Source: a virus
Lineage: Duplodnaviria; Heunggongvirae; Uroviricota; Caudoviricetes
Virus record (IMG/VR): IMGVR_UViG_2606217174_000014
Direction: 5' to 3' (one strand)
Length of the DNA stretch: 18,324 nucleotides
Shown here: one piece after another, positions 1-6,853 of the stretch
Layout of the letters: each line of letters opens with the position of its first letter
Position numbering within the stretch: the first letter of the stretch is position 1
Notes under the pieces: model-generated
Told to the model about the DNA's origin: nothing
Databases searched by the model: none
The model's input: the letters and a program-made list of their open reading frames with translations, nothing else
Made by a program: the position numbers and the translations under genes

Positions 1-276
1 TTACCGACTGCGGCCTGAGTTTTTTAAGTGACGTAAAATCGTGTTGAGGCCAACGCCCATAATGCGGGCAGTTGCCCGGCATCCAACGCCATTCATGGCC
101 ATATCAATGATTTTCTGGTGCGTACCGGGTTGAGAAGCGGTGTAAGTGAACTGCAGTTGCCATGTTTTACGGCAGTGAGAGCAGAGATAGCGCTGATGTC
201 CGGCGGTGCTTTTGCCGTTACGCACCACCCCGTCAGTAGCTGAACAGGAGGGACAGCTGATAGAAACAGAAGCCAC
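1..276 (-). CDS. insA: IS1 transposition repressor InsA
   Basis: 91-aa translation [40 protein letters not shown]... matches IS1 InsA as I recall it, with zinc-finger cysteines and an HTH. Confidence 0.92.
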
Positions 277-2418: not shown

Positions 2419-2775
2419 TTAATTGTGCTTTATTCCTTCAAGCGTTGCCTTCATACCAACCAAAGAAATGTTTAGCTCTCCAACTTTCTCAGGGCTATAT
2501 AATTCAGAATGAAGCCAATATTCTGATTTATCTAAACATCTTTTAGCCAGCTCTCGATCAAAGTCTACGACTTGGGAAGACGCTTCATACCAAAGCCTAT
2601 AAAGTTTTTCTTCTTCGTTTGGGTTATTAGGCTCACCACGTTTTAATTTTTCAGTATATAAAATTGTTGAATAAATCGCAGGAGTTAATCCAGTGATTGC
2701 CCTCTGCCGCAGATCGGATTTGTTTGTTATCCACCCCAACAGACGATCTCCCATCCATGTGATAATTGTATCCAT
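2419..2775 (-). CDS. Hypothetical protein, 118 aa, AT-rich orphan (moron-like)
   Basis: Clean ORF with an upstream AAGGG; composition is markedly more AT-rich than the flanking nin genes; no family recognised. Confidence 0.6.
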   Translation of the reverse strand: MDTIITWMGDRLLGWITNKSDLRQRAITGLTPAIYSTILYTEKLKRGEPNNPNEEEKLYRLWYEASSQVVDFDRELAKRCLDKSEYWLHSELYSPEKVGELNISLVGMKATLEGIKHN

Positions 2776-3236
2776 GCTTTAGCCCTTCTTAGTAAATAGT
2801 GTGTAGGGCGACTGAAGGACCGAGTTTATGCTTTTTCGCATTGCTTTCAGTTAGTACACCGGTATCGCACCGGAAACAATCCTACGGCAAATTGGTTGTC
2901 TGACCTCTCGGTTTTTCGTGCATTAACCGATACCCACTACAGTCTCGGCGAAAGCTGCACACCCCCAGGGTGTACTGGTAGCACTCGGCACAGCCTAGCA
3001 CGCCACTTTCTTCTCACTATCCAGTCTAATTTTATCCCCTAGTCAGACACTCAGATGTAGTGCTCCGCAGCGGCATGCGGGGGAATACAAAAACTCGGAC
3101 AAAATTGGGCCCTCCTTTTTGAATCACTCGCGGGGATGTAGTTATTAATACATGGAAAAAGATCTGTTTTCAAATCCAACATTATATGGTTTCAATACCA
3201 CGGGGTGGCTATGTGTTTCTCATTGTTAATTGGAAT

Positions 3237-3560
3237 CTACTGTAATCGATCCGAACGTAAATGCGGCAAAACTCGACTCCACTTATCATCCTGCCACGGC
3301 CGGAATTTTACATGTGCCGTTTCTCTGGCAAGGATTGCCTGTGCCTTATTGAGTATCTGGGGATATTCTTGCTCGATAGAAGTGAAGCGACCAGCTTCAC
3401 GATGCTCCGCAACCTGAAGAAGAGGAGTAACGTTCTGGTAGGTAATTAACATCACATTCCCTGCTCGCCATAACCAGGCGAGTGTGCAAAGTTCGTTATC
3501 AGTGAATTGTTTTGTGATTGGGTATTGTTGAACTGCTAGAACGAGAACGCCAGCATCCAT
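3237..3560 (-). CDS. Hypothetical protein (107 aa, or ~72 aa from the internal start MLITYQNV...)
   Basis: ORF in the ybcK-downstream region. The first ATG has a weak Shine-Dalgarno; the internal ATG has AGGGA upstream. No family recognised. Confidence 0.3.
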   Translation of the reverse strand: MDAGVLVLAVQQYPITKQFTDNELCTLAWLWRAGNVMLITYQNVTPLLQVAEHREAGRFTSIEQEYPQILNKAQAILARETAHVKFRPWQDDKWSRVLPHLRSDRLQ

Positions 3561-3671
3561 TGGCAGTCTCTATAGTAAAACCATAGCTCAGGACGCTTCG
3601 TTCAGGATAGATAATTTTAATGTACTTACCTAACTTTCTTACTATAGCACGGTTGAAAAAGTGATTATTAC

Positions 3672-5198
3672 TCAAAAATAAACCTCACCATCAACCATAT
3701 ATTTGAGAGTACTTATCGCCTGCTGGGCGGATATTGTTTTCATTAAAGGATAGTGTTTAAAAACAATGCCATTCATAAAATAGATATCACAGGTTTTATT
3801 ATCTGTATTGATTATGATTTTTTCGAATGTTTTATAGGCAAGTGTACGACATAGCTCTCGCCCATTTTTACTGGTTAAGTCAATAGCATGAAAATCACCA
3901 AGTGAACTCACCGCTTTACTCTTCAAAGTTTTTAATGATACAGAAGCCCTTCGTAATTCCTTATCTAATACTCTGATTTTTTCTGCTATAGCGGTAACTT
4001 CAGGCGCAACAGATAATGCAGCAATTAAATTATTAATTTTCATCTGGAGCTCAATAATTTTCAACTCTAAAGTTTCATTAGCATCTTTCTTGTTTTCAAC
4101 TGGTTGGATTTTACTACAATTAAAAAGCAACTCATTAATGATATTATAATCAACCAAATCTCTCTTTATTGATGGCCTGTCACATCGATGCAGTCTTCTC
4201 ATCGGACAAACATAATAGCCATGCAAACTTCTAGATACCGCATGAACAATCATGGTATTACCACAAGCCTCGCACTTCATAACTGTTCGAAGTAGATTTA
4301 TCAACATAGGATTTTTGCTACTATTGCTAATACCAAAAGGTGCCAACCGAATTTCCTGTACAGCGTAAAACAAATCATCTGATATGACTCTGGGATAATA
4401 GCCAGCGATTTCACTTATTCCTTTACCTCTTGCACGATATGAAGGTACGCATATACCTATCAGAGCTTTATTCGCTAATAATTTTTCAATTACAGAAGGT
4501 CCCCATGCACTTTCTTTTCCTGAGAAATTCTTTACAGCATGATCATTTAAATACTTGGCTATTGCATTCAATGAGCGCCTTTCCATCCTGAGTTTAAAAA
4601 TTAGCTCAATAGTTTTCACCCTGTCGGGGTCTGGAACAAAAGCCGTTCTTTTGTCATCTAAGGAGAGCCATCTCGGACAAGACGCCGTCATAATCGTACC
4701 TGATTCCAGTGCATCCTGCCGTTTTTTCTTCCATGATAATTTAACCCGACTTGACTTTATCTCGCTTTCTTCATTTGCCCTTTGTGCTATAAGTATGGCT
4801 TTTATTAATGAATATGGCTCATTCAAAGAGTCAATATTATAGACTGTATTGTCGCAAAGAGTTATAACATCAATACCGTGATTCAAAATCAATTTCAGAC
4901 GTTCAATCGCTTCACCGACTTTTTCTCTTGAAAGTCTGTCCAGACTTTCAACTAACAATGTAGTTCCTGGCAATATATAACCATGCTCTATAGCATCTAA
5001 AAATTCCGAAAAAGCTCCTGATTGTGCATGCTTTCCTTTGAATGCACTTAATCCTAAATCTTCATATGTTATGGTATCAAGATAATAATCACTATTTACC
5101 TTTAACCATTCAGCAATAAGTCTTCTCTGTCGGTTTAATGAGTCGCCAGACATCTGACCTGGTGATGAAAATCGCATATATGCTATGGCTTTTTTCAT
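3672..5198 (-). CDS. ybcK: Large serine recombinase (DLP12 YbcK-like)
   Basis: 508 aa. N-terminal resolvase catalytic motif (AYMRFSSPGQ with the serine nucleophile, then SLNRQ), followed by a recombinase domain, Cys clusters (CEACGN...C...C) and a C-terminal coiled-coil region. AGGTG Shine-Dalgarno. Confidence 0.85.
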   Translation of the reverse strand: MKKAIAYMRFSSPGQMSGDSLNRQRRLIAEWLKVNSDYYLDTITYEDLGLSAFKGKHAQSGAFSEFLDAIEHGYILPGTTLLVESLDRLSREKVGEAIERLKLILNHGIDVITLCDNTVYNIDSLNEPYSLIKAILIAQRANEESEIKSSRVKLSWKKKRQDALESGTIMTASCPRWLSLDDKRTAFVPDPDRVKTIELIFKLRMERRSLNAIAKYLNDHAVKNFSGKESAWGPSVIEKLLANKALIGICVPSYRARGKGISEIAGYYPRVISDDLFYAVQEIRLAPFGISNSSKNPMLINLLRTVMKCEACGNTMIVHAVSRSLHGYYVCPMRRLHRCDRPSIKRDLVDYNIINELLFNCSKIQPVENKKDANETLELKIIELQMKINNLIAALSVAPEVTAIAEKIRVLDKELRRASVSLKTLKSKAVSSLGDFHAIDLTSKNGRELCRTLAYKTFEKIIINTDNKTCDIYFMNGIVFKHYPLMKTISAQQAISTLKYMVDGEVYF

Positions 5199-5453
5199 GG
5201 TGACACCTGCTAACGTATGCTTTTATAAACCTTAGTGGTGGGATATAATTTTGTTTAATTTTTATTTAAAAAGACAATTAAGGTCACATTATCTTGAATA
5301 TACAACAATAATCGTATTGCAATTTTCTTACGCCATAATCTTGAAAGCACAAAAGAATACATAAAAAAATAAAGACATTAACAAAAAGCATAAAACGAGG
5401 CTCATATAAATATAAGAGCCTCCATATTTTAGTCGTTTAGAAACAAATTATTT

Positions 5454-5786
5454 TTAATGTGGTGTGCTTCGTGACAATAAATTAATAACCAACACACCGG
5501 CACAAATCAACATCATGCCTATAATGGCTGGCAGGTCCAGCCGTTGGCCGAAAAGTCCCCATGACAGTAAGCTAATCAGGACAATACCGACTCCTGACCA
5601 GATAGCATAAGCAATCCCTGTAGGAATATAAGCCAGCGTCTGAGCTAATAACCAGAATGATGCACAATAACAAATAATTGTACCAACAGATGGCCATAAC
5701 CGTGTAAAACCTTCTGAAAACTTCATTAAGGTTGTACCAATGACCTCTGCAAGTATTGCACCACCAAGATAAATATAAGGGTTCAT
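5454..5786 (-). CDS. emrE: SMR-family multidrug efflux transporter EmrE
   Basis: ORF 5454..5840; the internal start MNPYIYLGGAILAEVIGTTLMKFSEGFTRLWPSVG... gives a 110-aa four-helix SMR protein matching EmrE. Confidence 0.9.
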   Translation of the reverse strand: MNPYIYLGGAILAEVIGTTLMKFSEGFTRLWPSVGTIICYCASFWLLAQTLAYIPTGIAYAIWSGVGIVLISLLSWGLFGQRLDLPAIIGMMLICAGVLVINLLSRSTPH

Positions 5787-5853
5787 AGAATATTCTTTCC
5801 TGTTCAAACTGGAGAGAATTGTACTACAGTTTGAACTCAACTCACCTGTTTCA

Positions 5854-6156
5854 TCATTGTGTACCCATTGATGTTCTTTTATATACCCTCAATACCCGTT
5901 TCATCGCGGCACTCTGGCGACACTCCTTAAAAATCAGATTCGTGCTCACCTTTCCTTCCCGTTCTTCTCTGGTAGCAAACCGGTAATACACCGTTCGCCA
6001 GACCTTACCTTCGATAGCCAGAAGACCTGCCCGTGCCATTTTAGCCGCAGCCTGATTTATGCTGGTTACCGTTGCGCCTGTTACCGCGGCAACGTCCTGC
6101 GCACAGAATTTCTTATGAGTCCCCAGGTAATGAATAATTGCCTCTTTGCCCGTCAT
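5854..6156 (-). CDS. ren: Ren-like protein
   Basis: MTGKEAIIHYLGTH...ATVTSINQAAAKMARAG...VWRTVYYRFATREEREGK... matches lambda Ren as recalled; the C-terminus diverges. The start overlaps the end of P (ATGA). Confidence 0.8.
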   Translation of the reverse strand: MTGKEAIIHYLGTHKKFCAQDVAAVTGATVTSINQAAAKMARAGLLAIEGKVWRTVYYRFATREEREGKVSTNLIFKECRQSAAMKRVLRVYKRTSMGTQ

Positions 6157-6853
6157 ACCCTTGCTCCTTTCAGCCCAAACTTAGCTTTGATTTCTGCGAT
6201 CTTCGCCAGAGCCTGTGCACGATTTAGAGGTCTACCGCCCATGACAGGAAGTTGTTTTACTGGTTCAGGTATAGCCTCACCACGGTTAATTCGTGCGGTC
6301 ATACAGGACAGTTCATCGGCAGCCTTGCGCCGTAATTCCGCGTCAGTCACGCATTGGCCCGCATGTTCTGATACAGGTTGGTAACCAGCCAGTAGTGCGC
6401 GTTTGATTTCCACGGATAAGACTCTGCATCCGGATACAGCCCGCGCTTCCGGCAATACTCGTAAACCATATCAACCAGCTCGCTGGCGTTTGGCAGCCCG
6501 GCGGTAACGGATGCTTCTTCCCGGCACCAGGCGACAAACTGCCCGGGTGATGGCAGGAATGGTCGATTCTGCCGACGGGCTACGCGCATTCCAGCGTTAA
6601 CCTGTTCCATTGTGGTGATCCCGTTTTCCCGAAAAGCCAGCACCCACTGGCGGCGGATTTCGTTCAGTTCATTCTGGTCACGGTTAGCCAGGCTCGCCGG
6701 GAAAGTTGCCAGTAACTGGCTGAACACACCGTTGATGATCTGCGCTACCTGCTGTACCTGCGGCTTTTCGTCGTACTGTTCCGGCATGTTGTTGGCGATC
6801 CGACGCATCTGCTCACGGTCAAAGTTAACCATCTGTGCGGCGATGTTTTTCAT
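6153..6853 (-). pseudogene. P: Replication protein P (DnaB loader), disrupted by a 1-nt frameshift near 6347
   Basis: The 168-aa ORF 6347..6853 (MKNIAAQMVNFDREQMRRIANN...NMRANA*) and the 100-aa ORF 6153..6455 (...VTDAELRRKAADEL...KIAEIKAKFGLKGARV) together form one lambda-P-like protein but sit in different frames. Confidence 0.8.

Follow-up and report, generated by a model that had tools for sequence, protein, structure and literature searches.

The DNA considered here is an 18,324-nt stretch of a tailed-phage genome (Caudoviricetes; IMG/VR record IMGVR_UViG_2606217174_000014), called the window below, and in particular its interval 2776–3671, where comparison with relatives points to a structured RNA gene. 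The genes around this interval lie in the order Q (358–756), rusA, ybcO, ninE, ybcN (1776–2231), an open reading frame (ORF) of 118 amino acids (aa), the gap, ybcK (3672–5198) and emrE, an order that a preliminary description of the DNA had stated; all are on the minus strand, and the RefSeq annotation at an identical Escherichia coli locus gives the same arrangement. The preliminary description had regarded the interval as poor in ORFs and rich in hairpins, and had proposed a decayed ybcL-ybcM gene pair, a structured non-coding RNA, or a region serving the serine recombinase of ybcK for attachment or regulation. We found that the interval is real and ORF-poor, yet composite, consisting of an RNA gene, a gene remnant and junction DNA. 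The truly non-coding portion is 2776–3236; as had been noted, it has no convincing long ORF, the longest being 48 aa or less, and RefSeq places no feature in the gap in any of the 159 E. coli genomes that carry its sequence.

Comparison with relatives shows that this gap contains a putative minus-strand gene for a highly structured RNA of about 332 nt. The core of the RNA (2806–3137, minus strand; 5' AUCCCCGCGAG ... CAGUCGCC(C) 3') was delimited from the conserved island, the alignments and the pair model. Its length is constant across all clades (330–332 nt), and its identity to the window copy is 73–84%, whereas directly outside the core the background is 55–62% and is exceeded solely where the 118-aa gene is common to both sequences. 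The GC content is 52–53% in the core and 31–38% in the adjoining genes. Altogether, about 90 copies in about eight clades were gathered by three routes: IMG/VR pattern scans with four independent conserved blocks, one metagenome scan, and look-ups around homologs of the neighbouring proteins. The fourth IMG/VR pattern returned no additional copies. By sensitive blastn, the 461-bp gap matched 159 of 5426 complete E. coli genomes, each time as the same unannotated gap sequence. It was 78% identical to Klebsiella phage Kp4856-1 and 83% identical to another E. coli prophage, in both of which the neighbouring genes are different.

The evidence for a folded RNA comes from the pattern of substitutions. 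RNAalifold with 21 sequences gave 82 pairs, 12 of which showed compensatory changes, and a refined model with 22 sequences, including that of the divergent locus L162, contained 105 pairs in about 17–18 helices. In this model, 95.2% of the cells formed standard pairs as compared with 34–45% in controls in which the partners were slid by 1–3 columns; double-sided (compensatory) changes were present at 28 pairs versus 4–9 in the controls, and the covariation score was 0.232 versus approximately 0.055. None of 500 column shuffles attained the observed values. Several hairpins have been rewritten with full compensation among the copies, and in L162 one of them has changed completely, from GUUCACCC/GGGUGUUC to GAAAGCAC/GUGCUUUC. 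The pair model contained 266 G·U cells but only 11 A·C cells, showing that the RNA strand corresponds to the minus strand of the window. The non-coding RNA option of the preliminary description gained strong support from comparative evidence.

Folding of the window sequence by itself gave a different result. The minimum free energy did not stand out from that of dinucleotide shuffles (z-scores of -0.54 and -0.79), so that the several stable hairpins reported previously are at chance level in the single sequence; the case for a structured RNA is a comparative one and not a thermodynamic one. The two hairpins that had been singled out fared differently. CCGGT-atcgc-ACCGG (2860–2874) turned out to belong to a conserved hairpin, helix 17 (2854–2879, minus strand), the apical closing pair of which (274–280) covaries, being U-A in 4, A-U in 13 and C-G in 5 sequences; the lower stem of this helix is partly unpaired in the window clade. 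CCGCA-gcggca-TGCGG (3066–3081), on the other hand, was not borne out: uncompensated G/A/U variation occurs at its fourth pair, and its bases pair elsewhere in the consensus model.

The model has two domains, both on the minus strand. Domain 1 (3031–3140) is closed by AUCCCC/GGGGAU, comprises helices 1–5 and includes the near-invariant stretch AAGGAGGGCC..AUUUUGUCCGAGUUUUUGUAUUCCCCCGCAUGCC; with the covariance model R1, built on this domain, the window copy scored 125.7 bits and was the single copy in the window. Domain 2 (2810–3026) is closed by GACUGG/UCAGUC and comprises helices 7–18, which form a multi-helix junction with the best-covarying hairpins. Compensatory pairs in this domain number three in helix 132–137/187–192, five in helix 167–174/178–185 and six in helix 193–201/208–217. 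CAGACA, AUUUUG and AUAGUG are among the invariant loops of the RNA. The two domains are probably linked by a 7-bp pseudoknot, the proposed strands of which are GUCUGAC (3042–3048, minus strand) and its perfect 7-nt complement GUCAGAC (2898–2904, minus strand), the latter within the invariant block GAGAGGUCAGACAACCAA. The strands are invariant except in the L162/L175 clade, where a change of C to U is matched by a change of G to A; this double change keeps the pseudoknot pair and breaks a competing local helix. On this ground, the local helix (GGU/ACC around a CAGACA loop) was dropped from the model in favour of the pseudoknot, the assignment of which is tentative because it depends on a single independent compensatory event.

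A protein-coding function of the core was not supported, since the variable columns showed no 3-base periodicity and there were stops in every frame. A 19-aa ORF (MSEFLYSPACRC...) lies behind a conserved AAGGAGG and is open in most clades. We rejected it as a coding sequence because no synonymous change is seen among the clades in its first 12 codons, because the changes in L054 and L055 are non-synonymous but restore pairing, and because the L007 sublineage has an in-frame TGA. A type I toxin mRNA of the hok kind was also rejected, as no hydrophobic ORF was found.

The RNA family appears from these comparisons to be confined to Enterobacterales and, there, to lambdoid phages and prophages, within their accessory (nin) region; the named hosts are Escherichia, Klebsiella, Citrobacter, Enterobacter and Obesumbacterium. 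The element sits in lambdoid nin regions with or without ybcK; there is no ybcK nearby in phage IdasGreatGrand (L003), Kp4856-1 (L004), E. coli 3426 (L005), the Obesumbacterium locus L168, the loci L170 and L172, and the Citrobacter locus L175. A scan of a plasmid collection gave no matches to the element, and a scan of species-representative genomes gave 8 chance matches only, all in GC-rich genomes. Both flanks of the RNA are mosaic junctions, and the gene upstream of it varies (an antirepressor remnant, a DUF550-type pyrophosphohydrolase, an Ead/Ea22-like gene, and others). Clear cases of damaged copies were two. In L047, an IS21 element with an IstA transposase ORF (approximately 3370–4344) interrupts the RNA towards its 3' end, near nucleotide 305, and the RNA of L165 has point changes within the invariant blocks.

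We then compared the RNA with known families. The 4227 covariance models of Rfam 15, which include those for abiF, HEARO, ROOL, GOLLD, riboswitches, small RNAs (sRNAs), ribozymes, RNase P and tmRNA, gave no match in the whole window at gathering thresholds, nor, with permissive filters, on 2650–3750 at E<=10. Neither a tRNA nor a tmRNA was detected by ARAGORN. Four conserved 16-mers, searched for on both strands and in DNA and RNA spelling, gave no match in full-text searches of the literature, and keyword-level searches of the literature found only unrelated prophage RNAs, namely svsR (77 nt, located at the 3' end of cI) and the Pas sRNAs. A recent survey of new bacterial RNA motifs (50 genomes) contained no phage motif from Enterobacteriaceae. 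We therefore regard the RNA family as previously uncatalogued and new; we claim newness for the RNA family and not for the layout of the cassette described below. On the comparative data, we consider it highly probable that the gap contains a structured RNA gene of a new family. The nearest RNAs in general appearance are ROOL and GOLLD, which are large ‘ornate’ prophage-associated RNAs of about 580–800 nt found in Firmicutes and others near tRNA genes (PMC12286853). Like them, the present RNA is large, multi-helical, strongly covarying and prophage-borne, with a transcription unit of its own (here a predicted one). It differs from them in its size (332 nt), in having no Rfam match, and in its location in Enterobacterales lambdoid nin regions beside small accessory genes.

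The sequences around the core suggest that a promoter and, in most clades, a terminator belong to the RNA itself. A promoter-like block on the minus strand (3145–3173), deduced from the alignment, consists of TTGAAA (3168–3173), a 17-nt spacer and TATTAA (3145–3150). Other clades have TTGAAA, TTGAAT or TTGTAT, 17 nt, and TTTAAT or TTAAAT at the same positions; the hexamers are conserved, and the spacer between them is variable in sequence and constant in length. The predicted start, approximately A3137, is the point where conservation begins. About 25–45 nt upstream of the -35 block, a conserved block ACCATATGTTGTATAG was seen in L061, L066, L063, L068, L058, L054, L170 and L172; the window counterpart is ACCATATAATGTTGGA (approximately 3176–3195), which may be an operator or an UP-like element.

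At the 3' side, the core is followed immediately in most clades by a strong intrinsic terminator, for example ACCGCCucauGGCGGUaUUUUUUU. Such a terminator is found in L004, L055, L061, L064, L065, L066, L068, L084, L088, L106, L162 and L175, and the one in L068 was called by the scan as UACCGCCuuguGGCGGUA followed by seven U's, with a 7-bp stem that includes five G-C pairs. The terminator is absent from the window and from L058, L063, L168, L170 and L172. The terminator-less clades, i.e. the window clade and two others, lead into the 118-aa ORF 30–33 nt further on. In the window, the place taken by the terminator in most clades is occupied by a 30-nt linker (2776–2805, minus strand) between the 3' end of the RNA and the ATG of the 118-aa ORF, and this linker contains a Shine-Dalgarno-like motif, GAAGGG, at 2783–2788.

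The gene downstream of the RNA encodes one of at least five unrelated small proteins, called here partners A, B, C, D and F. It is on the same strand as the RNA and starts +30 to +52 nt past the core or terminator. Partner A is the 118-aa protein of the window (2419–2775, minus strand), for which AlphaFold2 predicted a four-helix bundle (pLDDT 80); a fold search with it gave no significant match, and it matches PHROG 12412, a family of unknown function. Partner B (178 aa, 2-TM) has terminal hydrophobic helices. Partner C (183 aa) contains an invariant IRLRHNLLHANKYE block with the motif RHNLLH, an RxxxxH motif as in HEPN RNases, and fold searches with it gave no significant match. Partner D has 93 aa. 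Partner F (177 aa; 5704–6237, plus strand, of L096, and also in L165) had no Pfam match; it starts with MKNIIIDSNAWNFLF, which recalls the first strand and aspartate of PIN-domain nucleases. Judged by these features, partners B and C look effector- or toxin-like, their toxicity being a prediction only.

The RNA and its partners have been kept together over a considerable range of divergence. Partner A homologs of at least 69% identity always have the RNA directly upstream, including those of 69–79% identity in Obesumbacterium, Enterobacter and others, and the RNA is kept beside the partner down to a protein identity of 69% for A, 56% for B and 67% for C. Partners have also been exchanged. L061 and L088 carry B, and L058, with an RNA 96–97% identical, carries A; L162 carries B and L175 carries C, and the divergent RNAs of these two are similar as judged by eye only. 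Where the partner has decayed, the RNA has been kept: partner A is cut to 66, 60 or 37 aa in L007, L011, L013, L017 and L091, the RNAs of which are 98–99% identical to that of the window, and partner B is cut to 34 aa in L084 with the RNA intact. Retention of the RNA during partner decay is what one would expect if, of the two halves of a pair, the RNA were the indispensable one.

These observations led us to the following proposal. Transcription would start from the promoter-like block about 7 nt upstream of AUCCCC and, in most relatives, would end at the strong intrinsic terminator right past the core; in the lineage of the window, which lacks the terminator, the transcript would continue into the 118-aa ORF. 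The RNA would be the constant half of a two-part accessory cassette consisting of promoter, RNA, terminator (in most clades) and a small variable protein, and it may gate the protein, acting either as a leader to curb read-through or translation or, alternatively, as an antitoxin-like RNA made in excess. The fixed partner junction, the co-divergence of RNA and partner, the swapping of partners behind near-identical RNAs, and the retention of the RNA on partner decay favour such a cassette. Taken as a whole, the statement that a structured RNA gene belonging to a new family lies in the gap and is part of a cassette that gates a small protein has, in our estimation, about an even chance of being correct, and the cassette with its gating mechanism, considered alone, falls a little short of that.

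The closest precedents for the proposed cassette are the type III toxin–antitoxin (TA) systems (ToxIN, CptIN, TenpIN) and the abiF-motif RNA RCd22 with AbiF, the latter a precedent for an RNA and small-protein layout (PMC12373285). They share with it the order promoter, RNA, intrinsic terminator and small protein gene, a layout in which the RNA would be in excess over the protein mRNA, and their loci, like the present element, ride on prophages or mobile elements; the RxxxxH motif of partner C resembles that of HEPN proteins such as AbiF. There are, however, several differences. Unlike a type III antitoxin, the RNA is by alignment a single non-repetitive 332-nt fold with no tandem repeats, although no repeat-finding tool was run. 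The promoter-RNA-terminator-gene order, with the promoter deduced from the alignment, is seen in the B and C clades, whereas the window clade and the other partner A clades are without the terminator. The partners are not of the ToxN/AbiQ (or CptN/TenpN) or Abi_2 families according to Pfam, PADLOC and NCBIfam, there is no Rfam abiF match, and one RNA family precedes at least five unrelated proteins.

Several findings weigh against the proposed cassette. A strict consensus promoter scan does not call the promoter-like block, since the -10 hexamer is missing either the A of position 2 or the T of position 6, and in L069 and L094 the -35 region has been replaced by a recombination junction at about -20 from the RNA start. 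The sequence diversity behind the pair model is modest (about eight clades, at least 73% identity), and many of the compensatory changes are common by descent. We did not find a conserved alternative pairing that would form an antiterminator or sequester the Shine-Dalgarno sequence, the alignments having been read by eye only and with no tool test. By eye, GUCGCC at the 3' end of the RNA could pair with the 3' arm GGCGGU of the terminator, and GUCCUUC could pair in the window with the Shine-Dalgarno-like GAAGGGC, with no covariation across clades in either case. Partners A, B, C and D had no Pfam, PADLOC or NCBIfam match. Remoter homologs of the partners occur without the RNA (A at 51%, B at 42–44% and C at 39–51% identity), which was confirmed by an unfiltered run of the domain 1 covariance model, and thus the partner proteins do not need the RNA. 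L055 has the RNA without a cargo gene, the terminator being followed by an ordinary DUF1367 nin gene. Finally, the presence of one RNA before at least five unrelated proteins argues against specific neutralisation of the protein by the RNA. As to the copies in L069 and L094, their transcription may depend wholly on polymerase reading through from the early operon.

The remainder of the interval, 3237–3671, is of a different nature. The 107-aa ORF at 3237–3560 (minus strand) does exist as described, but it is not the weak ORF that it had been taken for: it matches the Pfam family P22_AR_C (PF10548) at 1.1e-15, is named ‘P22AR C-terminal domain-containing protein’ in RefSeq, and corresponds with 85% identity to residues 100–202 of a 202-aa Bro-N plus P22_AR_C protein of phage IdasGreatGrand. 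It is the C-terminal (3') half of an antirepressor-like gene, as judged from these matches, and not ybcL or ybcM. The similarity to IdasGreatGrand stops near 3547, and the 5' half of the gene, with the Bro-N domain, has been lost at the join with the emrE-ybcK segment. A decayed gene, which had been considered possible, is thus present, although its identity is another. Between the truncated gene and the stop codon of ybcK there is an AT-rich junction (3561–3671; GC 31–37%) in which no feature was found. The DNA at 3389–3671, which comprises the 5' part of the remaining gene and the ybcK junction, is approximately 81% identical to unannotated DNA of the lambda-like phages Lambda_4C10, 4A7, D2 and Perceval. 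Elsewhere in the window, an IS1 InsA ORF (1–276, minus strand) adjoins the Q (quuD) end of the prophage, where RefSeq relatives have ompC/nmpC beyond Q in its place, and ylcJ, between ybcK and emrE (approximately 5255–5405), is a frameshifted pseudogene according to RefSeq at the identical E. coli locus (L001, 6556–6706).

It could be argued that the gap itself is a decayed coding sequence (ybcL/ybcM or another) or a DNA site such as an attachment site of YbcK or an origin, since the adjoining 107-aa ORF is truly a truncated gene and the interval lies beside ybcK in the window. In E. coli K-12, prophage DLP12 carries ybcL-ybcM in the same slot, from ybcK to the ylcH-ybcN nin genes. The two sequences are unrelated, and the ybcK-ybcN slot is a mosaic accessory position, the cargo of which differs among prophages. 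The ten longest stop-to-stop frames gave no PEBP or AraC signal, nor that of any other protein family, with Pfam, and blastn found no similarity to a K-12-type locus. In addition, the substitutions are not codon-periodic, the covariation of paired columns comes with a G·U excess that is specific to one strand, conservation follows the paired RNA columns and not the pattern of a DNA site, and the element occurs without ybcK in many contexts. Neither the ybcL-ybcM pair nor the recombinase site of the preliminary description agrees with these data, and any such origin of the gap is very improbable. Another alternative is that the gap is a ligand- or signal-sensing leader, either riboswitch-like or of the processive antiterminator kind known from HK022 put and Bacillus EAR. 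Such a leader would govern read-through at its own terminator and at the downstream nin terminators, and hence expression of the cargo and possibly of Q. Promoter, large aptamer-like fold, intrinsic terminator and gene form the classic layout of an attenuator, and as in putL/putR, EAR and riboswitch or T-box leaders, a structured RNA precedes an intrinsic terminator in a termination-regulated operon. Likewise, invariant junction and loop nucleotides alternate with covarying, variable helices, and the RNA is located in the nin region, where the terminators of lambda gate the expression of Q. Against this, put is about 70 nt and EAR about 120 nt, far shorter than the 332 nt found here, and the RNA has its own predicted promoter instead of lying just after PL or PR. 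By inspection, no antiterminator pairing was detected that covaries with the terminators (CCGCC/GGCGG versus CCACC/GGUGG in L055), the terminator-less members retain the whole fold, and no Rfam riboswitch or leader family matched. We therefore regard a sensing leader as quite unlikely.

The main rival to the cassette is that the RNA is a free-standing, trans-acting ‘moron’ (promoter, RNA and terminator) and that the downstream genes are incidental occupants of a hypervariable slot. The RNA might then, for instance, serve a host or phage protein as scaffold or decoy, be a ribozyme, or form a ROOL- or GOLLD-like RNA-only assembly. In lambda, N-modified RNA polymerase reads through terminators, and accessory genes of the PR operon do not require individual promoters; a promoter-like block and a strong terminator belonging to the RNA itself would fit an independent gene. 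The RNA is also kept where the downstream gene is truncated or absent (the L007 and L011 clades, L084 and L055), both of its flanks are mosaic junctions, and its size, multi-helix junctions and invariant loops bring it closer to the large ‘ornate’ RNAs than to short leaders. However, an incidental neighbourhood does not readily explain why the RNA persists with A, B and C over substantial divergence, why the partner junction is fixed at +30 to +52 nt, or why at least three RNA clades have no terminator, so that the RNA is predicted to be fused to the 118-aa ORF transcript. In our judgement, a free-standing RNA is possible, but on balance doubtful. It is also conceivable, if unlikely, that the RNA of the cassette is a protein-free sensor or antitoxin module, the fold of which detects a signal of infection or induction (a small molecule, a phage protein or altered transcription) and releases a plugged-in toxic effector such as a membrane protein, a HEPN-like RNase or a four-helix protein. 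If true, the ‘conserved sensor plus swappable effector’ logic known from retrons, CBASS or Avs would have a counterpart made of RNA only in the nin region of lambdoid prophages.

Large structured RNAs are seldom newly discovered, and those that were have often brought new biochemistry to light. E. coli and its lambdoid prophages belong to the genetic systems that have been studied most, yet the present RNA is unannotated in all 159 of the complete genomes that carry it. For the locus itself, the annotation is corrected in that the gap is an RNA gene, as the comparative data indicate, with a truncated antirepressor-like gene next to it, and not a decayed ybcL-ybcM pair. The fixed position of the RNA before interchangeable small proteins suggests that lambdoid phages and prophages may carry accessory or exclusion cassettes that are gated by an RNA.

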